From IMG/VR virus record IMGVR_UViG_3300020003_000002, positions 1 to 51,133 of that record: a stretch of DNA of 51,133 nt; one strand, written 5' to 3'. Position numbers and translations under genes: made by a program. The notes below the pieces were generated by a model, which worked only from the letters and a program-made list of their open reading frames with translations, made no database searches and was not told the origin of the DNA. This DNA is from a virus (lineage: Duplodnaviria; Caudoviricetes). This document shows positions 6,020 to 47,460 of this stretch, in pieces. Every line of letters starts with the position of its first letter. The stretch's first letter is position 1.

Positions 6020-7467
6020 ACGGTAATCACCGTTCCGTCCTGCCATCGATTCCCAGACCATACGTTGCCGGCGTTGTTCTCCCACCCGGAGTAGGCGCCG
6101 TACTGCGGACACGGCCCGAACACGTTGTCGAGGAACCGGACGTTGGTGGCGTGCGGGTACGCCTTGCCGGAGACGGATCCGCCGTAGGTGCAGAACCCGT
6201 GCACGCTCGCGAAGCTGTTGTTTTGCACGAGCCAGTCGTCGATCGGGTCGAAGTCGCCGTACAGCGAGAACGCCGCCGAGCATCCACCGGCCCGGCCCGC
6301 CATCACGTTGCAGGTGAGCGAGTTGTGAACGATTTGGCTGTGGCCGCCTCCGTTCGACCCGATGGCGGTGATGTGCGCTGACGAGACGGAGCCGAAGTCG
6401 TAGAACAGGCTGTCGCGGATCTCTACGTTGCTGCCGGCATTGGCGCCGCGGCCAGTGCGGTGCACATGGCAGCGAAGGCACGTGTAGCCGTTGCCGCCGA
6501 CGGCTGCTTGTCCGTCCGGGTCGATGGTGGTGCCGCCGTCAATCTCGACGTCTATCAGCTTCAGGTTGCGCGTCGGGTCGTTGTAGGTTGATCCGCCGAC
6601 GATGCCGAGCACTCGCGACCGGGTGATGGTGACGTTGCGGGCGTTGATGTAGACGCCGCCGGTGAACAGGCACGAGTCGTATGTGCCGGCTGCGCTGATC
6701 GTGCTGGAGCAGGCGTGCAGTGTGACGCCGGGCGGTACTCCGGTGCAGGCCGCGTCGGGCATGGCCGGGAACGCGGGGCAGGTGCGGCCGGTCGGGCCGG
6801 TGATGGTCGGCGTGGGGCTCACCGTCGGACTGGGGCTAGGGCTGGGCGGTGGTGTGGTCGCTGGGGGTGTCGTCGGCGGGGCTGTAGTGGCCGTAGGGCT
6901 CACAGTGGGGCTTGGTGTAGCGCTGGCCGTGGGCGACGGTGAGGGGCTCTGCGTGGCGCTGGGGGTCGGCGTGGGGCTACTGGACGGGCTCGGCGACGGG
7001 GCCCCTGACTGCACCGTGAACGTGCAGTTGACCGTGCCCTTGGCGTCACCGGGCCAGCCCTTCGCGGGATACACCCGCACCTTCGCCGAACCTTCGGCGA
7101 GGATCAGGTCCGGCATGGGGTCGGTCGTCGCATAGTCGACCTGCCCGGCGCCGGATGTGTCCGTGGTGAGGATGTTCTGCGGGTGGGCGCCGTTGGACGG
7201 ATCAGCCGCCTGCGTGACGTTGGTCCAGTAGGAGGCGTTGGGTGTGAGCCCCCACGCCTGGATGGTCCACGGCTGGTCCAGCAGCACCGGCGCCGGGGTG
7301 ACGCTGCAGCCGTTCTGCGATCCGGCCGAGGCGGGCGACGGGGACGAAAAAAACGCCGCCCCAGTCACGAGGACCAGGGCGGTGAGGAAGGTCAGGAGAA
7401 CGCTTGCCGGCGTCCAGTTCTGTCTACTGCGGTGGCGGATGACGTCGGTGCCGGGCCACGTACTCAT
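6016..7467 (-). CDS. Secreted protein: signal peptide, beta-rich domain, Pro/Thr/Ser linker, putative right-handed beta-helix domain
   Basis: Hydrophobic segment ending PASA; SPSPT linker; NVTITRSRV, NVEIRDSLF, NVRFLDNVF strand repeats. Confidence 0.75.
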   Translation of the reverse strand: MSTWPGTDVIRHRSRQNWTPASVLLTFLTALVLVTGAAFFSSPSPASAGSQNGCSVTPAPVLLDQPWTIQAWGLTPNASYWTNVTQAADPSNGAHPQNILTTDTSGAGQVDYATTDPMPDLILAEGSAKVRVYPAKGWPGDAKGTVNCTFTVQSGAPSPSPSSSPTPTPSATQSPSPSPTASATPSPTVSPTATTAPPTTPPATTPPPSPSPSPTVSPTPTITGPTGRTCPAFPAMPDAACTGVPPGVTLHACSSTISAAGTYDSCLFTGGVYINARNVTITRSRVLGIVGGSTYNDPTRNLKLIDVEIDGGTTIDPDGQAAVGGNGYTCLRCHVHRTGRGANAGSNVEIRDSLFYDFGSVSSAHITAIGSNGGGHSQIVHNSLTCNVMAGRAGGCSAAFSLYGDFDPIDDWLVQNNSFASVHGFCTYGGSVSGKAYPHATNVRFLDNVFGPCPQYGAYSGWENNAGNVWSGNRWQDGTVITV

Positions 7468-20161: not shown

Positions 20162-21004
20162 CTACGGTCGGGCGGTTGATGTGGTGACCGGCCGCAGGAT
20201 CACGTCAGCGTTGAGTTGGGGTGTAACCCCGGAATCGGGGCGCAGGGTGACAGGAGTAGCGCCGATCCCGCCAGATGCCGTCGCAGTGAAACTGAACGCG
20301 ACCGATGCGATACCGAAGCGCTCCGGGAAACCAACGGCAGTCGCAGCGAACGTAAAGTCGGTGAGGGCGGCCCCCATGACCGGACCGGCAGCGGCACCGG
20401 ACGCGCTGGCGGTGAAGACCAGCGCGGCGAGCACCTGGCCGCCCGTTCCGCGTACGCCGGCCGCTGTCGCGGCGAACGTTTCCGCCGCAACCGCTTGGCC
20501 CTGCACCCCGGGTACACCGTTAGCGGTGGCGCCCAGCGTGTAGGCGCCGAGGCCTTGGCCGTTGTGGCCCGGTACCCCCAGGGCGGCGCCGGTGTAGGTA
20601 TAGGCACCGAGAGCGGCCCCGTTGTGGCCGACGGTGCCGACCACGGTGGAGCCGAAGGTGTAGGCACCGAGGGCGGTGCCGTTGACTGGGGGTGCTCCGG
20701 CTACCCCGGATGCGGTGCCGTCGAAGACGATAGTTGCGGCCGCGGCGCCGACGACGCCGGGGACACCAAGGGCGGGGGATCCGAAGGTGTAGGAGCCGGC
20801 CGCTTGCCCGACCACACCGGGGACGCCGGCTGCGGTGGAGCCAAACCCGATGGCGGCTGCGGCCTGACCGACGACGCCGGGTGTGCCTAGTGCGGTGCCG
20901 GTGAAGGTGAAGGCGGCGAGGGCGGTGCCGGTGACCGCACCACCGCCCGCGACGGCTGCTAGCGGTAGCGGCGCATATCTGACGTTGCTGCTGCCGCGCG
21001 CCAC
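20162..21004 (-). CDS. Gly/Ala-rich fibre-like protein with about 11 repeats of about 20 aa
   Basis: Repeat G.A....TF..TA.G.PG.. (e.g. GTALAAFTFTGTALGTPGVV, GQAAGSYTFGSPALGVPGVV). Confidence 0.75.
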   Translation of the reverse strand: MARGSSNVRYAPLPLAAVAGGGAVTGTALAAFTFTGTALGTPGVVGQAAAAIGFGSTAAGVPGVVGQAAGSYTFGSPALGVPGVVGAAAATIVFDGTASGVAGAPPVNGTALGAYTFGSTVVGTVGHNGAALGAYTYTGAALGVPGHNGQGLGAYTLGATANGVPGVQGQAVAAETFAATAAGVRGTGGQVLAALVFTASASGAAAGPVMGAALTDFTFAATAVGFPERFGIASVAFSFTATASGGIGATPVTLRPDSGVTPQLNADVILRPVTTSTARP

Positions 21005-26961: not shown

Positions 26962-27348
26962 TTACCGGCGGCCCTGGACGCGCAGCTTGAGCGGGGAGCC
27001 CGCAGCTGTCGTCACGGCCGTGCCGATGAGGCTGCCAAGGGCCGCCGCCGTACCGACGGTGGCAGTTTTTACCTGGCCGGATGCGTCAGTGACAACACCG
27101 GCAAGAACGGTGATGGCACCTGACGCGACGAGTTCGTGGATGCAGCCATCCAGCGGCCACACGGTGAGCTTCGCGCCGGACGCGGCGTCGTGGGCGGCCA
27201 CGCCGGCCACGACAAGAGAGTCAGCGCCGGAGACGGTCACCGTGCTCGCAGCGGACCAGACGACGACGTTGCCCCCGGCGACAACGCCGCCAGTGGTGAC
27301 CGTGAACGGCTCAGCGCCGCCGGTGTAGACGGGCGTGTAATCAGCCAC
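26962..27348 (-). CDS. Capsid decoration/cement-like protein 1 (DUF2190-like)
   Basis: MADYTPVY...AGVAAHDAASG...SGAITVLAGV...IGTAVTTAA. Confidence 0.8.
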   Translation of the reverse strand: MADYTPVYTGGAEPFTVTTGGVVAGGNVVVWSAASTVTVSGADSLVVAGVAAHDAASGAKLTVWPLDGCIHELVASGAITVLAGVVTDASGQVKTATVGTAAALGSLIGTAVTTAAGSPLKLRVQGRR

Positions 27349-28519
27349 GGTTGGCCGCCCGTCGGGTCGGGTCGCTTAGGCGGGCAATCTCCCGGTCGAG
27401 TTCGTCCTCTTCCACTTCGCCGTCGCCGGCGTAACCCGACGCCGCGACCGGGATCATGTTGCGCTGCATGCTGGAGATCGCTTCGCGGGCGCCCTCCGGG
27501 TCCAACTTCCAGTTGTGCGTCCAGTAGTCCTTACGGGCTGGGGCGAACTTGCCGTCCTTAATGGCCTGGATGATGATCTGATCCGCCTCGTCGTCACGCC
27601 GACGCTGCGCATCGGCCTCAAGACGCTTGATGCGCTCCTGGTTCTCTTCCCAGGCCGACGCCTCAACCCTGATCATGCTGTCGGCGAACTTCTCGGGCCT
27701 GCGCGCAGACGCCGCTACGGGCACGGCTTCGGGTGCCGTCTCGGGCGTCTCGGCCTTCGGGACGAAGCCGGCCTTCGCAAGAGCGGCCATCACCTCGTCA
27801 TCTGTGAGGTCGTCGAGACCGACAGCCTCTCGGAACTTTGCCGGATCCATGCCGGTCTCCGTTTCTGTGGGTGGGACAACCGCCTCGTCGGCGGGGTCTG
27901 GGGTGGGCGTAGGCCCGGGGATGAACGCCTCGACCGGATCGGGCTCGATGGTCAGAACGGGTTCGATCACTCCGCCCTGCGCCCGAGCGGGAACCTGCGG
28001 CGGAGTGGCCGGGTCGTCCTCGGGCGCAGAGGCAAACAGCGGGGTCGCCGACGACGCGGCCAAAGCGTTCTGCAGATCGGCCAGGGACTTGATGTTGCGT
28101 ACGGCGGGCGGCACCGCACCCAGGAACGCCAGCGCCGACAAGGTCAGCGAGTATTCGCGGCCGTCGTGCTCGACGTTCTGCCAGCCCTGCACGCTGCGGT
28201 TCGGCCAGCGCGACGGAGCCGACGCAGCCAGCCAGCCGGGCATGCCGACGATGTCTCCGAGCAGGACCGGGCCGCGGTCGTCCTCGAGGTAGCGGATGTT
28301 CGTCACCGACCCGAACGTCGGCTCGCCGTCGTTGAAGCGACTGTCCTTGTGGCCGAGTCTGATCGGCACCGCCTGGCCGCCGGACGCGGTGTAGAAGTCG
28401 GCCGCGTCGCGCAGCATCTCGGCGGTGAAGTTGCCGTCGCCAACCGTCACCGACCACGCACCGGGGCGGGCGAGCTCCACGCCGAGCATCTGGGCTGGGG
28501 CTGTCAGGGCGCGCGTCAT
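27341..28519 (-). CDS. Prohead protease-scaffold fusion (Mu gpI-like)
   Basis: IRLGH, WPNRS, LAFLGAVPPAV; C-terminal AIKDGKFAPA scaffold. Confidence 0.85.
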   Translation of the reverse strand: MTRALTAPAQMLGVELARPGAWSVTVGDGNFTAEMLRDAADFYTASGGQAVPIRLGHKDSRFNDGEPTFGSVTNIRYLEDDRGPVLLGDIVGMPGWLAASAPSRWPNRSVQGWQNVEHDGREYSLTLSALAFLGAVPPAVRNIKSLADLQNALAASSATPLFASAPEDDPATPPQVPARAQGGVIEPVLTIEPDPVEAFIPGPTPTPDPADEAVVPPTETETGMDPAKFREAVGLDDLTDDEVMAALAKAGFVPKAETPETAPEAVPVAASARRPEKFADSMIRVEASAWEENQERIKRLEADAQRRRDDEADQIIIQAIKDGKFAPARKDYWTHNWKLDPEGAREAISSMQRNMIPVAASGYAGDGEVEEDELDREIARLSDPTRRAANRG

Positions 28520-28569: not shown

Positions 28570-29367
28570 TTAGAAGAGTCGGCCGGGAAGTGGTGGCTTA
28601 CCCGTAACGGCCAGCGCGACGTGGTAAGACCAGTCCTCCTGGCGGGTCCGCGCATTCTTCGAGAAGTTGCAGAACAGATGAGCCAGCGCCACGTTCGTCC
28701 AGACGTGCCCGGGGCAACCGGGCTCGTTGAACGGAATGATGTGGTCGAGGCTCGCCATCATGGGAGCGCGACCGGCGAGGGTCTTGTCGACGGGAAGCCT
28801 GCACAGATGACAAACCCAGCCGTCGCGCTCGAAGACCGCCCAGCGGGAGAATTGTTCAGCGGGTAGCGACTCCATGCGGGCTCGTCGGACGACTTGATTC
28901 GCCATCGCGGTGCAACTGTTGGTGCAATGGCGCTTGTTGTAGCGCGCCTCATTCGGGATCGGCTTGCCGCAGTACTCGCAGGCCCGGTTGGCGAAGTACT
29001 CGGCGCTGCCCGGAAACATGCGCTCACGCCGTTCGCACCGCTCACCGCAGTACCGACGTCCAGCCTTAACATCCACCAGCGCGGCCCCACAATGAGCGCA
29101 GGCCACGTGTCGAATATAGGGGGCGACGACGCCCCTCCGGCGACGCTTGGTCGCCGCCGACGCGCACAGCGGCGAGCAGTGCAACTGGTGGCGGTTACGG
29201 TCAGGCGGAAGCGGCACGCTGCAGACTTGGCAGTCCGCGGCGCCATACGGGACGCCCGGGTGCTTCCGGTTCCACATGTAGCACCGGTTGCAACAAGTGA
29301 CCTGCTTCTGTGGGTACCGCGGCGTGAATTGCCCATGGCAAACCACGCACACCTTAGGCTGGTGCAC
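28570..29367 (-). CDS. Free-standing HNH endonuclease with Zn-ribbon repeats
   Basis: VFERDGWVCHLC...SLDHIIP...GHVWTNVALAHLFCNFSK. Confidence 0.9.
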   Translation of the reverse strand: MHQPKVCVVCHGQFTPRYPQKQVTCCNRCYMWNRKHPGVPYGAADCQVCSVPLPPDRNRHQLHCSPLCASAATKRRRRGVVAPYIRHVACAHCGAALVDVKAGRRYCGERCERRERMFPGSAEYFANRACEYCGKPIPNEARYNKRHCTNSCTAMANQVVRRARMESLPAEQFSRWAVFERDGWVCHLCRLPVDKTLAGRAPMMASLDHIIPFNEPGCPGHVWTNVALAHLFCNFSKNARTRQEDWSYHVALAVTGKPPLPGRLF

Positions 29368-29434: not shown

Positions 29435-32400
29435 CTAGCCAGGACCGAGCGGGTTCGACCCCTTACGCTCGCCGGACCAGATGCCGAAGACCTCCCAAAA
29501 CCACTTACTGGCGAAGATCTTCGCTTTATGCACTCCGACATGCTCTGTCAGCAGCGCTACGAGCGTGGTCCAGGGCGTTGGCGAGCCTCGCCAACGCATC
29601 AACCCAGGACCCTTTGTCCAGTAGTGGTGCAGTTCGTCGTTTCCGGGTGTGACGTCGTGCCCGGCGGCGGCGCGAACGCGGCTAGCCTTCTTCACCATCG
29701 CCGCAGTCGGTGCCAGTTCGTCGATCTGCTCCGGTGTGAAGCCCAACGACCGCAGCCGTGCCCGCTTCTGGCGGATGGTGAGACCGGAAAGGTCCGGTAC
29801 AACCCCGTGATACGCAGCGGTGCCGTAAGACGGAGTAGTGTCCACGACCCACTTCGCGACGTCCATATGCTCGGCGAGGCTGTTCCCGGTCATCTTGCCC
29901 GGCGCCACCTTCTTGGCGGCGGCGGGTGTGCCGGTGGCCTTGCGGGGGGCGGCGGGCCGTGGTCGGGGTGAGGGGTCCTCGGCCGGTGGCGGAAGCTCGT
30001 GCGTTGCGGCTTTCGGGCTAGGCTCACGGACGATCAAGGCCGACCGGTTAAACACGAGGACTTCGTCCTCAAGGCTTCCTTCGATGCGCATTGCGTCGAA
30101 GCCGCGAGATGCCACATACCGACCCAGATCGGAGAACACGCGGTGTTCATCACTGTCGGGATCGAGGCCGGCGAGGAAGGTCTTGTGCTCCTCTTTCAAT
30201 TCGCGCCAGTCCGCGACTCGCGCATCGGGGGGGAGCGCCATCCGAATCGGATTCGGCCCGTATCGGCGGGCGGTGTGCAACTGCCGGGACGTGTAGATAC
30301 CACTGCCCCACACCCCAGTAGGCAGGTAGGTGTCACCAGCCCGCAGCCGGTCGGCGAAATCGTCTTCGTTTCCTCCCGCGCTGCCCAGCGCGAACACGCC
30401 TCGATAGAGCGGCAGGTGGCCATCGGCCACCAAGCGGTCAAACTCGGCAACGCTGACTACGCGCGGCGGCCGGTCGAAGCCCTGCCGCTCGGCGATTGCG
30501 AACGCGACCTCATCGCCATGAGGGCCTGCGATCTGGCCATATGAGCCCTCGCTCGTGCGGCGACTGGTTGCTGTCGCTAGCGCCGAACTGGCCACCTCGG
30601 CGGTAGCACCATCGCCGATGAGATCGGAACCGTTGACTCTAGCCGCTACGCCGGGTGTGCCGGTGGCCTTGCGGGGGGTGGCCTTCTTGGCCGGTGCCCG
30701 CTTCGCCGGCGGCTTCCCGCCCCGCTCCTTGCGTGCCCACTGCGCGGCCTCGTCCGGACTGGCCTCCTCGACGACGGCCTTGCTGAGCCGCACCTTCTCG
30801 CCGTCACGGTCGTACTCGTAGCCGGGCCGCACCACGTGCACAACCGCAGACGCCTTCGTGCCGGCGATCATCTGATGCCGCGTCCGGTCGAAAGACTCCA
30901 CCCCGCCGGCCGAGCCAGTCGGGGTCAAGCCGTGGTCCTTCGCAATGTCGGCGCGAACCTTGTCGACCTTGCGGCGATCACCGGTCGCCACCGCGGCGAG
31001 TAGCCGGTCCACCACATCGTCGGGTGCCCCGCCCTGACGCGCAGCCTTCAGCCGGCGCTCCACCACGACCCGATCGGCTTCGCTGTCGAGAAGCTCATCC
31101 ACCTCGGCGAGGGTGTCGGCGACAGTGCGGGCCTTGTCGATCTGAGACTGGCGGTCGGTGGCGTCCTTCTGAAGGCCGCGGTTCTTCTCGGTCCTTGCCC
31201 ACTGCGCCAGCCGTGGCTCGCCGTTGGCCTCAGCCCATTTCTCCATCTCGGCAAGCGAGTCGAAGCGCTGCACCAGCGCGCCGCGTTTGCCGTTCTCGTC
31301 CTCGCGGAACAAGGCCGGGTGGCCGTCCTTGTCGCGGTAGACGGCCACATCCAGGTCGCGGAGGGACTTCGGCAGCGGGCGGGGCGAGGCATCACCGAAC
31401 GAGATTGCGTGCTTGTCCTGGCCGCCAACGTGAATCGCGGCGTCCCGATCCGCCTGGGTGAGTGCCTTCTGGTTTGACTGCGGCACGACAACCGGATCGC
31501 CCGGCCCGTCATAGTCGCCGCGATTCATCCGCGTCAACGCCGCATCAACGTCGCTGCGTGGAAGATCACCCAGCTTGCGGCGAAGATCCGACAGCATCAC
31601 GTGGTCGGTGCCGACCTCGCGGTACGCCGCCCGGATCCGGTTCTCGACCTCGATCTCGCGGATCTTCGCCGCATCCGGCTTACCCTGCAGGGTGAACTTC
31701 GCCGACGGCTTGCCCTGCTCCCGCTTGCCCTTCGTCGCGTCGCGGACGTAGTCGAGAAGCTGCTTCTCGATCTCGTCAGCGGGAGCGCCGCGGCGAACCG
31801 TCAGACCGAGATTCTTCGTCGCCACCGTACGCAGGTTGTCGCGGGTGAAACCCTGGCCCTTCAGCGGCTGATCGCCGCCCTCACCCCGCGACCACTGCTG
31901 CAACGCGTTCATCACCCGGCCGAAGACGGTGCGGAACTCGCCGGTCTTCGGGTTACGGGGGTGCTTGATGTTGAAGTCGGGTCCGGCCTTGGCCTGCACA
32001 ACGCCGGTGAACTCGGCGATAACGGCGGCGAGTGCCTCCGTTACCTCGTCGAATTGCCCCGATTCGTCGTCGTCATAGACGTCAATGTCACCAGCGCTGC
32101 CAGCGCTCAGTGCTTTTGGGCCAGCATCACCGGACGCGTAGACCGCCGACCCCTCGCCATACTCGGCCGACTCGTTCGGCTCGGTTGGGGTACCGAAGCC
32201 CCCGCCATCCGCCGGCTCGCGGACCGTGTCTTTGTCCTTCGGCGGCAGACCGTACTGCTGGCGCGTGGACTGCTCCAACACCTCGTCGGCCTGAATCACG
32301 CCCGCGTCGATCAGCAGCTTGATCGCCTGCGCCGTAGCCGCCTGACGTGAGCCGATCTCGTCGAAGCAGATCCGTGGGGCCGGCTCCTCCGGACCCCAGT

Positions 32401-33448
32401 TGGCGTCCACAAGGTCTTCGACGATGTGCATGCTGGCCGTGCCGGCGATTTGCTGCGCAAGGGTCTGTAGCGACAGCGTGAAGAAATCGGCAAACGTCGT
32501 ACCCAGCGCGTAGGAACCATGCGACTGGGTGTCCAGGTTCAGAAAGTGAGCCAACACAGCACGGGCGATCTGCTCGTCGTGATACTTCACCGCAGGCAAC
32601 GCGTCAGGCAGCTGACCCTCGACGCCCATCAGGCGCAACTTGGCAGTGTTCGGGATCGCCGCGCCCGCCGCCTCACCGGCCCGCAGCGAGGTCGTAAGGG
32701 CCAGGCCTTTCGCCAGATCCTGCTCTTCTTCGGCGGCCTCATAGACCGGGATGCCCATGCCGTTGCGTTCGATCGTCTGGGCCTGGACGCGGAGCAGCCG
32801 GTCCTTGATCAACCAATTTTTGTACGCCTGACGCAGGACGCTGCGCCCGAGCCAGTTGCCGCCCTCTTTCTTGTAGACGTAGGCGACCAGATGGCGGACT
32901 GGGATCGGCTTCTGCGGACCACGCTGATCCATCGTGCCCAGTTGGGTGATCGAGATCAGCCCGCCGTCACGCGCCACGTCGATCTGCTCGATCGTGCGCG
33001 GCATCCGCGGGCTCAGCTTGCCAAGGTGCGCCTCCGTGCCCGCCTTGTTGACCCGGTACACCTGCTCGAAGTACATGTGGCCGAAGGGAAGCATCAGCAA
33101 CGCCAGCTCGAGATGCTCCAACCAGCTGAAGCGGTCCTTCGTCCTCGGCGGCGGCTTCGGATTCTGACCCACGATCGGCAGTCCAAGATCGTCGGCAACG
33201 AACTTGACAACCTCATCCCGCGCACCAGCCGGGTCAAGCCGCCACGGAGTGCGAAGCACCGGACGGGTAACCGCCTCCAACACCGACCCGACCTGGGCGT
33301 CTTGAGTTCTCATGGCGTTGTAGACCTTGACCGACATCGGCCACTGCAGTTCCAGCGTGTCCTCGTCCGGGTCGTGCTGCCACCACGCGTTGGTGGTGCC
33401 GTAGGACGGGGTGACGTAGCCGATCTCTCGGGTGGACGGGGCGGTCAT
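29435..33448 (-). CDS. Portal protein (DUF935/Mu gp29-like) fused to an approximately 900-aa multidomain extension including an ADP-ribosyltransferase-like domain
   Basis: Portal motifs GRSVLRQAY, ERNGMGIP, YHDEQIARAVLAHFL, GSYALG; uninterrupted frame to 29435; GGGGAGG RBS before ATG 33448. Confidence 0.88.
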   Translation of the reverse strand: MTAPSTREIGYVTPSYGTTNAWWQHDPDEDTLELQWPMSVKVYNAMRTQDAQVGSVLEAVTRPVLRTPWRLDPAGARDEVVKFVADDLGLPIVGQNPKPPPRTKDRFSWLEHLELALLMLPFGHMYFEQVYRVNKAGTEAHLGKLSPRMPRTIEQIDVARDGGLISITQLGTMDQRGPQKPIPVRHLVAYVYKKEGGNWLGRSVLRQAYKNWLIKDRLLRVQAQTIERNGMGIPVYEAAEEEQDLAKGLALTTSLRAGEAAGAAIPNTAKLRLMGVEGQLPDALPAVKYHDEQIARAVLAHFLNLDTQSHGSYALGTTFADFFTLSLQTLAQQIAGTASMHIVEDLVDANWGPEEPAPRICFDEIGSRQAATAQAIKLLIDAGVIQADEVLEQSTRQQYGLPPKDKDTVREPADGGGFGTPTEPNESAEYGEGSAVYASGDAGPKALSAGSAGDIDVYDDDESGQFDEVTEALAAVIAEFTGVVQAKAGPDFNIKHPRNPKTGEFRTVFGRVMNALQQWSRGEGGDQPLKGQGFTRDNLRTVATKNLGLTVRRGAPADEIEKQLLDYVRDATKGKREQGKPSAKFTLQGKPDAAKIREIEVENRIRAAYREVGTDHVMLSDLRRKLGDLPRSDVDAALTRMNRGDYDGPGDPVVVPQSNQKALTQADRDAAIHVGGQDKHAISFGDASPRPLPKSLRDLDVAVYRDKDGHPALFREDENGKRGALVQRFDSLAEMEKWAEANGEPRLAQWARTEKNRGLQKDATDRQSQIDKARTVADTLAEVDELLDSEADRVVVERRLKAARQGGAPDDVVDRLLAAVATGDRRKVDKVRADIAKDHGLTPTGSAGGVESFDRTRHQMIAGTKASAVVHVVRPGYEYDRDGEKVRLSKAVVEEASPDEAAQWARKERGGKPPAKRAPAKKATPRKATGTPGVAARVNGSDLIGDGATAEVASSALATATSRRTSEGSYGQIAGPHGDEVAFAIAERQGFDRPPRVVSVAEFDRLVADGHLPLYRGVFALGSAGGNEDDFADRLRAGDTYLPTGVWGSGIYTSRQLHTARRYGPNPIRMALPPDARVADWRELKEEHKTFLAGLDPDSDEHRVFSDLGRYVASRGFDAMRIEGSLEDEVLVFNRSALIVREPSPKAATHELPPPAEDPSPRPRPAAPRKATGTPAAAKKVAPGKMTGNSLAEHMDVAKWVVDTTPSYGTAAYHGVVPDLSGLTIRQKRARLRSLGFTPEQIDELAPTAAMVKKASRVRAAAGHDVTPGNDELHHYWTKGPGLMRWRGSPTPWTTLVALLTEHVGVHKAKIFASKWFWEVFGIWSGERKGSNPLGPG
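29923..30678. repeat. 27-bp perfect direct repeat pair (29923-29949 and 30652-30678)
   Basis: CGGGTGTGCCGGTGGCCTTGCGGGGGG twice, 729 bp apart; encodes PRKATGTP. Confidence 0.95.
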
Positions 33449-33466
33449 CGGCGTACCCTCCCCGGT

Positions 33467-33676
33467 ATGAGTGAAAGCAACGGGCTGCTGCCCGTTTGGA
33501 AATGGGGCCACACACGCGAGGTGGCGTACGAGGACTTCCTCGTTCTCAACCCGATCGCCGTGGCACTAATCGCGCCACTCGCAGACCTCGGCGACGAGCA
33601 CGCCGAGTTGCGTGAGTGGGCTCGGACTAAACTCGCGACTTCGCCGCGCACGTACGTCAAAATCCAGCCGTCATAA
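33467..33676 (+). CDS. Small opposite-strand hypothetical protein (69 aa) between terL and portal
   Basis: Fills the intergenic gap; TACCCT -10 box 7 nt before ATG; protein-like composition. Confidence 0.55.
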   Translation: MSESNGLLPVWKWGHTREVAYEDFLVLNPIAVALIAPLADLGDEHAELREWARTKLATSPRTYVKIQPS

Positions 33677-35758: not shown

Positions 35759-36475
35759 TCAAGCCACCTCCTGCGCCCAGAGCGTCACGGGCCCGGAGTA
35801 GTCGCTCCCGTTATTCGGCCTCGCCTTGTTGCACGCGCCGCAGATGATCCGGACATTCCCGATCGTGTGTGTCCCGCCAACCCCTCGCGGGATGATGTGA
35901 TCGAGTTCCTTGCTGTGCGGCAGGTACGGCACGTCGGTCATCTTGACCGAGCACAGCGGACAGCGTTTGGCCTTGGCCCGTAGCGCGATCTCGTACTCGG
36001 GCGTGATGTCCGTGATTCGTGACCAATCCCGGCGGCGATGAGTCTTGATCCGCAGCCGAGCCCGCTCGCGCGCGGGATCCTTGGGGACGTCCCCGATGTA
36101 GTGGCCGTTAGCTCGGTTGTAGTGGGTGCTGCAGAGCCCGCGTTTTCGAGCGGTCCGGGCGCAGTCCGGCTCTGCGCAGACGCGGATCTTGGCAGCATCA
36201 ACGCACACCCGGCACCGCTTGCTTCCCCGGGTGCAGATGGAACCACAGTCCGCACACAAAGACGGCGGCAAAGCTGCCCGCCGGCACTCGAAGCATTTGT
36301 GCTGACCGGGTGGCAAGCAGCCATGCGAGACCGGCAGCATCCGGCCGCAGGTTCCGCCGCACAGCACTCTAGGTCGGTGGTGCTGGTAATAGTGCCGATT
36401 GCACATACCGCGGTGGGTCGCCCTGAGACCGCAGTCAGTCTCGGAGCAGATCTTCAGCGCGTTGCTACTGCCCAT
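35759..36475 (-). CDS. HNH endonuclease with N-terminal Zn repeats
   Basis: CPLC...ELDHIIPRGVGGTHTIGNVRIICGACNKAR. Confidence 0.88.
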   Translation of the reverse strand: MGSSNALKICSETDCGLRATHRGMCNRHYYQHHRPRVLCGGTCGRMLPVSHGCLPPGQHKCFECRRAALPPSLCADCGSICTRGSKRCRVCVDAAKIRVCAEPDCARTARKRGLCSTHYNRANGHYIGDVPKDPARERARLRIKTHRRRDWSRITDITPEYEIALRAKAKRCPLCSVKMTDVPYLPHSKELDHIIPRGVGGTHTIGNVRIICGACNKARPNNGSDYSGPVTLWAQEVA

Positions 36476-36745: not shown

Positions 36746-37081
36746 CTAGTCTCGTGCCCCTCTATTACATGCACTGTGCTCAATGCGATCAGCGCGTGAT
36801 GTGGGGTCGAGGCGTAGCCCTGTGCTGTGCCCTGCGTCCAACTCCTGCCCTGCCTGCATGGGCTGACCGCAGCGAGGACAGAGCTGGCCTAGCGCAGAGG
36901 GCAGCATGCGAGCACGGGCGGCTTGATGCTTCGTCCCGTAGCCACGTTGCGCAGTGGATCCGCGGTGGGCATCTCGTGCCCTGTTCCATGCCGTGGCACA
37001 AGCCGTGCACCGTGAGTCGGGTCGGTCGGTCAGGTTTGTGCAGTGCTGTCCATCCACGCCGAGGCACGGTCGCTTGGGCAT
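36746..37081 (-). CDS. Terminase-associated HNH-like endonuclease
   Basis: RGSTAQRGYG...CPRCG...LDAGH...EHSACNRG. Confidence 0.8.
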   Translation of the reverse strand: MPKRPCLGVDGQHCTNLTDRPDSRCTACATAWNRARDAHRGSTAQRGYGTKHQAARARMLPSALGQLCPRCGQPMQAGQELDAGHSTGLRLDPTSRADRIEHSACNRGARD

Positions 37082-45025: not shown

Positions 45026-45291
45026 GACCCACTCCTCGACTTGGCGCCGAGCACCTCGATGAGCCGCAGCGTCTTGGCGTCCGGCGAACCGCACGATCCG
45101 CACATGGCGTCTCCGGCGGGACCGATCCGCCAGCCGGACTTCCGTGCCGCCGCCAACAGTTCCGCCTCGGTGGTGAACGGCGACCCACTAGCGCCGGGGA
45201 ACGCCTTCGTGCACTTGAACGTGCCGTAGTCCGGCGAACCATCGTCGAAGTAGGCGGCACCGTCGCAGGCGAGAATCAGGCGGACACTCAC
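45022..45291 (-). CDS. Zn-binding hypothetical protein
   Basis: CDG...C...GW...CGSC. Confidence 0.6.
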   Translation of the reverse strand: MSVRLILACDGAAYFDDGSPDYGTFKCTKAFPGASGSPFTTEAELLAAARKSGWRIGPAGDAMCGSCGSPDAKTLRLIEVLGAKSRSGS

Positions 45292-45671
45292 GCTGCACCT
45301 ACCGGTGGGCTGTCGTGGTATGCGCCGTCGTGGCCCAGGTACACGTACCGCGACTCGTGGTCAACCAGGCATGCCACCGTGGCCGGGTCGTCCAACTGCT
45401 GCACCAGCCAGCCGGCGGTGATCGCGTCGGAACGGTGGCGCTCTACGTGCGTGTGGCACCGAAGGCACAGCGAGACCAGGTTCTGCGGCTGGTTGGTTTC
45501 CTCCCGGTCGGTGCCGCCCATGGCCCTTGGTCTGCGGTGGTGCAACTGGAGCTCGGCAGCACCGCAGCGGATACAGGCGTAGCCGTCGCGTTGAAGTACC
45601 AGCGCCACCGTGTGCGGCTTCGGGCCGGTGCGGCGGTGGTTGCGCCGCATGGGGCTACGCGTCAACATCAC
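45288..45671 (-). CDS. HNH endonuclease
   Basis: RDGYACIRCG...HHRRPRAMGG...NLVSLCLRCH. Confidence 0.85.
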   Translation of the reverse strand: MMLTRSPMRRNHRRTGPKPHTVALVLQRDGYACIRCGAAELQLHHRRPRAMGGTDREETNQPQNLVSLCLRCHTHVERHRSDAITAGWLVQQLDDPATVACLVDHESRYVYLGHDGAYHDSPPVGAA

Positions 45672-46557: not shown

Positions 46558-46808
46558 GATTTTGGCCTCTCGTAAACCATCGGGATGTCCACGCCTCGTA
46601 GCCGGTTCAGCCGTCTCCTCGCCGCTGATTCGCCGTCTGTCTTGAGTGGACGTGACCACGCGCGCTGCTCCTCGCGATGATCACAACTCCAGCAGATGTG
46701 GATAACCTGCAGGTGCCAGTTCTCGCCCTCGTCCGGGCCGAGCTCCATGAACATGCGCTTGTGGCATTTCGGGCAAAGCCGTGGTGAATCAAGAACCTGC
46801 ACTGCCAT
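46554..46808 (-). CDS. Zn-ribbon protein
   Basis: CPKC...CWSC. Confidence 0.55.
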   Translation of the reverse strand: MAVQVLDSPRLCPKCHKRMFMELGPDEGENWHLQVIHICWSCDHREEQRAWSRPLKTDGESAARRRLNRLRGVDIPMVYERPKS

Positions 46809-47460
46809 CGGACTTCACCTCCTCGGCTGCCTTGCCGTTGATCTCGCCGCGTCGCGCGACAACGGCGATCTTCAGGTGGTCGAACGTGGCCGGCGAAATC
46901 CGGTCCTCGGCACCAGGTTTCTTCGCCGCGACAAGTCGCTTGGCGATGTCGTCGAGCTCGGTGCTGCTCTTGGCGTCCTCGATCTCGAACTGCCACGCGG
47001 TACGCAGCGTCTCTTGCTCGTGGGGATCCCAATGCTCCGACTTCTCGGCAACCCGGATCGGCTTCTCACTGGCCGCCGCACCGTCGTCGTCCTCATCCGG
47101 CGCCACGCCGACGATCGAACACAGCGCGTATCTCCGTGCGTAGGTGATGGCCGAGCCGATCTCCTGCGCCGTGCCCGACTGCGGCAGCGGATACTCACCC
47201 TCGTCCGAATCGCCGCAGGCGTGCAGAAGGCGGTAGGCGAGGACGAACTTGCCGCCCTCGTTGAATGTCGGCTTGGCTGTAAACGACAGACCCACTGCGC
47301 CGAGAGCCGGTAGGACTACACCGGAAACCTCGGCTAGGTCGGCGTAGGAGTACTGGTAGGACCCGCCGTCCTTCGTCTTCACCTTCGCCGTCTTGGTTTT
47401 GACGATCGGCGGAAGCTTGGCCTGAAACGCAGCTAGGGCGGATGCGAGGTTGTCGGTCAT
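46789..47460 (-). CDS. erf: ERF-family ssDNA annealing protein
   Basis: YSYADL...GSAITYARRYAL..IVGVAPDEDDDG. Confidence 0.93.
   Translation of the reverse strand: MTDNLASALAAFQAKLPPIVKTKTAKVKTKDGGSYQYSYADLAEVSGVVLPALGAVGLSFTAKPTFNEGGKFVLAYRLLHACGDSDEGEYPLPQSGTAQEIGSAITYARRYALCSIVGVAPDEDDDGAAASEKPIRVAEKSEHWDPHEQETLRTAWQFEIEDAKSSTELDDIAKRLVAAKKPGAEDRISPATFDHLKIAVVARRGEINGKAAEEVKSDGSAGS

Follow-up and report, generated by a model that had tools for sequence, protein, structure and literature searches.

In the portal gene of a tailed phage, a module with a predicted ADP-ribosyltransferase (ART) fold is enclosed by two perfect copies of a 27-bp direct repeat, and we think it probable, with some reserve, that this repeat is both the trace and a reusable substrate of short-homology recombination between linker words, by which cargo modules, probably carried in the head, would be gained, lost and swapped. 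The gene lies in the IMG/VR virus record IMGVR_UViG_3300020003_000002 (Caudoviricetes; 51,133 nucleotides), referred to below as the window. It is one whole virus record, containing integrase, terminase, Mu-like head protease, capsid, amidase and Erf genes. Related loci and proteins are designated by L and P numbers, respectively. The features on which the argument depends are as follows.

29435..33511, minus strand: portal-tail fusion open reading frame (ORF), 1358 residues from the first GTG, or 1337 residues from the ATG at 33448, the start used in the protein collection
32246..33328, minus strand: Mu-type portal domain PF06074, residues 62-422 (E 1e-60, 206 bits against a cut-off of 23.9)
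30652..30678, minus strand: repeat copy 1, upstream in the gene, in a Pro/Ala/Lys linker; PRKATGTP at residues 946-953
30023..30637, minus strand: ART-fold module, residues 959-1163, with conserved R1037, Y1073, Y1084 and E1150
29948..29980, minus strand: end remnant of module B (EDPSPRP); over 40 bp it shares 80% identity with the linker at the B tail of L086
29923..29949, minus strand: repeat copy 2, residues 1189-1196, in a linker that in relatives comes before module F

An earlier note on this DNA had described the repeat as perfect, in frame and extending to 31 bp with one mismatch, and this is confirmed. The two copies, each encoding PRKATGTP, are identical and lie 729 bp, or 243 codons, apart; with two mismatches the match grows to 34 bp. 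The repeat is the longest exact one of the window, the runner-up measuring 18 bp, and in order-4 Markov simulations (n = 20) the longest repeat ranged from 15 to 19 bp. When synonymous codons were shuffled with the protein fixed, 27 bp was reached in 0/200 and 0/300 runs, and the use of the same codons for all eight PRKATGTP residues in both copies, including the rare ACA, has P = 7e-4. The identity at synonymous positions, also noted earlier, is thus beyond chance, and on both grounds the repeat is attributed to a duplication at the DNA level.

The enclosed stretch differs in composition from much of the gene. The GC content at third codon positions (GC3) of its 235 codons is 0.715, compared to 0.821 in the portal part (p = 0.002) and 0.832 in the upstream tail (p = 0.0003), with no significant difference from the downstream part (0.772, p = 0.25). 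The suggestion that its codons end more often in A/T therefore holds against the portal and the upstream tail, but not against the downstream part. The modules bracketed by repeats in relatives also have GC3 values mostly below that of the N-terminus of the protein that carries them. Copy 1 ends six residues ahead of the G-x-D-L/I motif that opens the ART module in relatives, and the insert also includes about 25 residues of linker ending in the module B remnant. It does not resemble a transposon or site-specific element, since it codes for the ART module only, and no inverted repeats were found at its ends among the 25 longest listed for the window. The insert sits about 530 codons beyond the portal domain. 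Being in frame, it preserves the rest of the tail and not the portal, so the idea that the arrangement protects an essential portal frame has to be given up. In addition, 17 of the 21 Mu-type portals from named genomes are without any tail module (24 loci, with three fragments left out), which makes the tail optional for portals of this type.

The earlier note had called the enclosed domain ART-like. This is supported by fold and not by profile, and the linker and module B remnant share the space between the repeats with it. Searches with Pfam, PHROGs and NCBIfam profiles gave no family name for the insert; PF18760 (ART-PolyVal) matched 0/12 module members at E 1, and PF03496 (Alt/VIP2 ART) did not match the window module, whereas it does match other modules of relatives. 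A PDB sequence search with the insert returned only a weak ART match (E 0.073) and an unrelated helical match. A single-sequence fold model was discarded because of its predicted local distance difference test (pLDDT) score of 46. The model built from an alignment of 12 relatives is confident (pLDDT 85) and has an ART fold, with PARP, diphtheria-toxin-class, RES and anti-CRISPR chains at the top ranks in Foldseek. The anti-CRISPR chain, 6kyf, we take to be AcrIF11. AcrIF11 is an ART according to a published abstract. In a wider structure search, whose top ranks are likewise ART-fold chains, the best match (Z 7.6, root-mean-square deviation 5.7, 135 aligned) was a cyanophage pre-ejectosome chain (PDB 9k3a chain B, residues 1261-1602), followed by a second with Z 7.3, a deviation of 4.4 and 120 aligned. 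Across the 12 aligned members, with active-site columns assigned by motif position, R1037 is conserved in 12/12, Y1073 in 10/12 and Y1084 in 11/12. Atlas places the module nearest to a cluster with PF18760 on 20% of its members, which serves as a lead only. Taken together, the model is consistent with an ART-fold module of an unprofiled family, predicted from its fold and not from any profile. It should be mentioned that residues 1261-1602 of 9k3a chain B may themselves carry an unrecognised ART fold; the main text of the paper on that structure mentions neither ADP-ribosylation nor ART.

Three protein searches gave 63 long relatives, the window protein included, with 57 distinct architectures. 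They are anchored on Mu-type portals, HK97-type portals or MuF-like domains, and their modules are set apart by Pro/Ala/Lys linkers in which AKKA and PRKA words are frequent. In the window, the tail behind the Mu-type portal is about 930 residues long, and the protein comprises the portal domain and at least eight recurring modules. The window-type ART module is present in 15 of the 63 proteins, so the homologues do not always carry the same domain, and the earlier proposal that the domain is exchangeable holds. Module swapping is evident from L103, where the same position is filled by VIP2-class ARTs, and from L048, where the flanking modules are joined directly. At the latter position L049 has about 165 residues between 10-bp repeats, while L048 has one copy of the repeat and its GrpE-like module is joined to module F, these being the two modules that flank the slot in the window. 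L048 has an HK97-type portal and protease and L049 a Mu-type protease, and nevertheless their tail blocks are 91-98% identical; near-identical blocks have therefore crossed between phages with unrelated head genes. In two further pairs, a window-type ART of L050 stands opposite another domain in L051, and that of L055 has no counterpart in L059. One metagenome scan yielded three loci, and a scan with P0010 yielded none.

Repeats comparable to that of the window were found in other members of the family. In six of 21 related ORFs the longest exact repeat lies at or below the 2.5% tail of the ORF's own synonymous shuffles, a threshold fixed after the data had been seen and with L109 (identical to L099) and the 81-residue L107 left out. 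These six, all in frame, are L048 (22 bp, 5/200), L049 (19 bp, 3/200), L014 (19 bp, 2/200), L086 (20 bp, 3/300), L103 (32 bp, 0/300) and L093 (32 bp, 1/300). The binomial chance of 6/21 is 1e-5, and that of 3/15 among the ORFs not picked via the linker pattern is 0.006; none of six control genes of the window showed an excess repeat by the same shuffles. In L103, which has a Mu-type portal, two PF03496 ARTs of the VIP2 class, 33% alike, lie between three repeat copies that are exact over 32, 28 and 27 bp, and these ARTs begin directly after the GrpE-like module, as in the window. In L093 a VIP2-class ART lies between 32-bp repeats of another word. A 14-bp word of the window repeat, which includes a minor Pro codon, is found, among the loci collected and with the window phage itself excluded, only in L086 (once) and L103 (three times), and is thereby common to three Mu-type tails; where the peptide pattern matches elsewhere, its codons are used in 0/30 cases. 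L086 is the closest relative (portal 80%, module F 89%, protease 86%), and 29 bp overlapping copy 1 are identical in it, although the portal DNA of the two phages is only 78-81% identical. L086 lacks module B at the window position, as well as module D, the GrpE-like module and the window ART, and ahead of module F it has a different 98-residue module, enclosed by a 20-bp repeat unlike that of the window.

A second pair of repeats is present in the window gene upstream of the ART insert, among the following features.

31376..31675, minus strand: module B, about 100 residues, unnamed, the most mobile module; not at this position in L086
31196..31207, minus strand: 12-bp repeat copy, AQWAR at residue 769, end of module C; alone within the shuffle null
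30758..31186, minus strand: module D and GrpE-like module, the latter with a pattern likeness to the GrpE C-terminus
30734..30745, minus strand: 12-bp repeat copy, AQWAR at residue 923; alone within the shuffle null

The 12-bp pair is in frame, spans 462 bp, brackets module D and the GrpE-like module, and splits a linker that in relatives comes after module C. The GrpE label is tentative, and a PDB search gave no GrpE match. Module B is seen inserted within other modules and within copies of itself (e.g. P0010, P0004, P0006), with up to five copies per protein. Calmodulin was considered for module B and not accepted, the matches having E values of 0.002 or worse.

The arrangement of the tail between predicted cleavage sites bears on the fate of its modules. 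The relevant features are listed below.

31928..31999, minus strand: V-x-A motif at residues 505-507 (motif 31988-31999), then the HPR motif that opens the tail; predicted head-protease site
29666..29677, minus strand: VRAA at residues 1279-1282; second predicted head-protease site
29438..29665, minus strand: conserved C-terminal domain, phrog_6439, whose families include head protease and virion protein
27341..28519, minus strand: Mu-like I head protease/scaffold, itself containing several x-x-A-S motifs

V-x-A precedes the HPR motif in 10/10 Mu-type and 0/17 HK97-type cases, where an R motif is found instead in 16/17; before the C-terminal domain, V-x-A is found in 5/5 Mu-type and 1/13 HK97-type cases, and R in 13/13 of the latter. 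The background frequency of V-x-A is 8%. A third portal group has E-A/S at the motif positions. The switch of motifs with the head-protease family is seen in the window and at L005, L007, L014, L016, L019, L020, L023, L041, L043, L048, L049, L061 and L063. The window protein has a further V-x-A at residues 457-459. The type of the neighbouring protease agrees with the motif wherever it is visible, including at loci without an assigned portal type, and like motifs flank the protease domains themselves. This pattern suggests that the head protease frees the array (approximately residues 508-1281) from the portal inside the head. Together with the portal fusion, it suggests that the tail modules probably enter the virion and reach the host cell with it. 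The phrog_6439 domain, 70-75 residues long and Trp-rich, is found as a stand-alone protein or on at least three portal types, unrelated ones included, and is possibly a head-targeting tag.

We propose the following route. Linkers coding for AKKA and PRKA recur several times per gene and across phages, and because every copy of such a word is read as the same peptide without a shift of frame, exchange at these words would stay in frame and fall between domains. The ART module could have come in when a crossover took place out of register or when an excised circle integrated; either event would leave the word in two copies, and these would permit the precise loss of the module. In this reading there is no fixed site and no site-specific recombinase; any short-homology pathway would suffice, the phage Erf being one candidate, and host RecA or slippage being others. 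The head protease would then cut at V-x-A on either side of the array and turn the modules into internal head proteins that enter the cell at infection, where the ART, given its predicted activity, would modify a host or defence target with NAD+. Red-beta is reported to need at least 23-27 bp for pairing and RecA 31-34 bp, and the Erf of phage D3 is described as an efficient recombinase (PMC3945230). By these figures and the activity of D3 Erf, 27 bp is a workable recombination substrate.

Several observations weigh against the proposed reading. The fold match is middling, as no structure match reaches Z 8 and a Foldseek search with the model gave no match at E 0.001, and residue 1150 is E in 6/12 members, Q in 4/12 and D in none, so that half of the members are without the glutamate. 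In the three filled and empty pairs, 3/12 filled-side junctions carry an in-frame repeat that exceeds the local null (10, 12 and 22 bp), and at the two slots filled with the window ART family no junction repeat does so. Fifteen of the 21 related ORFs have no repeat beyond their own null, and an 18-bp repeat around the window ART family in L094 is within its null (52/300). L086, L103 and L093 came to light via the linker pattern, and such a pattern favours genes rich in linkers. The sequences behind the cut-site counts are related to one another, so that the counts overstate independence. Finally, the single-repeat (empty) allele that the earlier note had predicted for the window gene was found neither in the genome contigs nor in the viral contigs searched; the exact repeat itself occurs in 0 stretches of the genome contigs and, among the viral contigs, in the same phage only. 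If perfect repeats persist at recent events and decay at old ones, both the six positives and the many negatives among the relatives can be accounted for.

These negatives are also what speaks for the repeat being a one-off scar. A single illegitimate or one-sided event would have brought in the ART and duplicated a stretch of linker, with the family moving its modules mostly without repeats and the duplication having no continuing role. The nine of 12 junctions without a repeat above the null, both slots with the window ART family among them, agree with such a history, as do the 15 ORFs without excess, the missing empty allele and the difference of repeat sequence and length between phages. 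We nevertheless regard it as unlikely: the 14-bp word recurs in two other phages, in one of them three times around two unrelated ARTs, the 29 bp shared with L086 are identical despite the divergence of the portal genes, and older events would in any case have lost their repeats by mutation.

At the other extreme, the DNA word could be kept by selection as a crossover site for effectors in a dedicated cassette system, with Erf driving the exchange. A word with a minor Pro codon common to three Mu-type tails, and two ART classes behind it at the same position, would accord with this, as would the presence of erf in the window genome and in the record of L020 and the fit of 27 bp to the pairing length of a related annealase (PMC3945230). 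However, other phages use other words, and the shared ones could stem from recent exchange alone. The fixed PRKATGTP slot envisaged in the earlier note does not stand, as the peptide is absent from all 62 other long proteins and the repeats range from 10 to 32 bp among phages. Because the repeats differ and two comparable ART-filled slots are without a junction repeat, there is not one dedicated slot. Erf was found in 1/10 related records, or 1/4 of the complete ones, six of the 10 being partial; RecT was found in 0/10 related records, mostly partial, and Rad52 in 0/5. Next to the gene there is no sign of a silent cassette array or of a site-specific recombinase. On balance a dedicated cassette system is improbable. 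The Erf-driven shuffling that had been suggested is not supported, and an involvement of Erf is plausible only, its co-occurrence in these mostly partial records giving no further support.

An assembly artefact, in which two genomes or alleles were joined via a shared 27-mer, deserves mention, as the sequence is an assembled viral contig and 27 bp is close to common assembly k-mer sizes. We consider it very improbable, given that the ORF is open through both junctions, each flank fits the linker expected from relatives, like repeats are present in six other phages, and a second contig of the same phage, though possibly not independent, is identical over 6740 bp. That two low-complexity linkers converged by chance on the same peptide and codons is scarcely credible in view of the synonymous shuffles and the codon identity that includes the rare ACA, common as AKKA/PRKA words are in the family.

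Short-homology recombination between linker words thus remains our preferred reading of the repeat. A bolder generalization, which we put forward tentatively and with considerable doubt, is that actinobacterial phages run an intragenic cassette exchange, in which linker words kept alike inside and across phages serve as common in-frame crossover sites for a supply of ARTs and other effectors, the array on the portal is released at lineage-matched sites by the head protease of each phage, the injected payload differs from one virion lineage to the next, and filled and empty alleles arise in one lysate.

The genomic setting points to an actinomycete phage. The nearest portals in named genomes (67-73%) are those of actinomycetes such as Paractinoplanes, Microtetraspora and Dactylosporangium, which suggests actinomycetes as the host group, and the phage likely infects a soil actinomycete. 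Among isolated phages, 0/930 records cover 80% of the portal-tail protein. The portal gene is flanked by small terminase and Mu-like protease genes, and the candidate recombinase is encoded elsewhere in the window.

46789..47460, minus strand: Erf-family single-strand annealing protein, candidate recombinase

The gene after the portal-tail ORF encodes a 265-residue HNH endonuclease and not a small immunity protein. This gene was considered as a driver of exchange and dropped, since by eye no comparable gene was recognized directly after the portal-tail gene at any of 17 listed loci, although four of these loci stop at that point. Four HNH endonuclease genes are present in the window, at 28570-29367 (between portal and protease), 35759-36475, 36746-37081 and 45288-45671. 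Degenerate coding repeats of 60 nt and about 80 nt at 20507-20935 and 6793-6993 belong to probable tail or surface proteins. Among the relatives, P0008 has by eye an apparent intein inside its portal domain, and P0037, P0039 and P0054 carry precomputed Pfam labels PF14528 or PF14890, presumably homing-endonuclease and intein families.

We have compared this gene with the known systems of phage head cargo. The earlier note had regarded it as the best candidate for an undescribed system. ART cargo fused to portal or MuF proteins is in fact published (PMC5512222, PMC9503650, PMC7302621), whereas crossovers at linker words were not found described. Neither repeat-bracketed modules with shared linker words nor lineage-matched cut-site motifs of the head protease have a description in the literature searched, outside of which lie most subscription papers as well as supplements that may list such architectures. 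The papers on polyvalent and MuF cargo give, in their accessible text, no DNA-level route for mosaicism, and the window makes such a route visible and testable: the perfect 27-bp repeat predicts one exact deletion product, with the natural erf gene offering a control. The lineage-matched motifs predict exact cut sites of a Mu-type protease and would explain how a dodecameric portal could tolerate a variable tail of about 900 residues. The R-Y-E module, on the basis of the fold model, would represent an unprofiled ART family in phage heads and a candidate early counter-defence enzyme.

The closest parallel is found in the polyvalent proteins, for which fusion of ART or other effector domains to portal or MuF proteins, likely packaging and extreme mosaicism have been described (PMC5512222, PMC9503650, PMC5576092), with up to 50 domain combinations in the jhp1044 example (Iyer et al. 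2017, PMC5512222). As in these proteins (Iyer et al. 2017, PMC5512222; 2022, PMC9503650), the window encodes a large multidomain protein in the portal-terminase module of a phage, with diverse, rearranged domains in one polypeptide and architectures that vary widely, and its predicted ART is of the PARP/diphtheria-toxin structural class, like ART-PolyVal and Tox-ART-HYD2. However, the window module lacks the H-Y-D triad of those families (PMC5512222) and has an R-Y-E pattern and no PF18760 match, and VIP2-class ARTs occupy the same slots in its relatives. The accessible text of the polyvalent-protein papers proposes no DNA mechanism (the strings 'linker' and 'shuffl' have 0 occurrences), and processing is assigned mainly to built-in metallopeptidases (PMC5512222).

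A second parallel is provided by the MuF polymorphic toxins (Jamet et al. 2017, PMC5576092) and by the MuF-VIP2 fusions of Microbacterium phages, in which Percival has a MuF protein with a VIP2 ART and Floof a homologue without it, a published filled and empty pair (PMC7302621). Here too an optional ART is attached to a head-module protein of a temperate phage. In contrast to the MuF toxins, the anchor in the window is a portal, with no Pfam match to a MuF domain in the portal-tail protein, the ART is internal in an array and not a single C-terminal toxin, and no immunity ORF follows. According to published predictions the ART travels in the head and enters the cell together with the DNA, in the manner of T4 Alt (PMC5512222, section 9), and in T4-like and giant phages head cargo is described as being processed by a protease. 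Unlike T4 Alt, a separate protein of the R-S-E class, the window cargo forms one translation product with the portal, and its cleavage is predicted from motifs. With respect to mechanism, the relaxed recombination by Rad52-like annealases (PMC3945230) resembles the proposed route in the short homology at mosaic boundaries and in a pairing length near 27 bp. The mosaics reported in the accessible text of that work are of gene scale and from coliphages, whereas the crossover words of the window repeat inside one reading frame.

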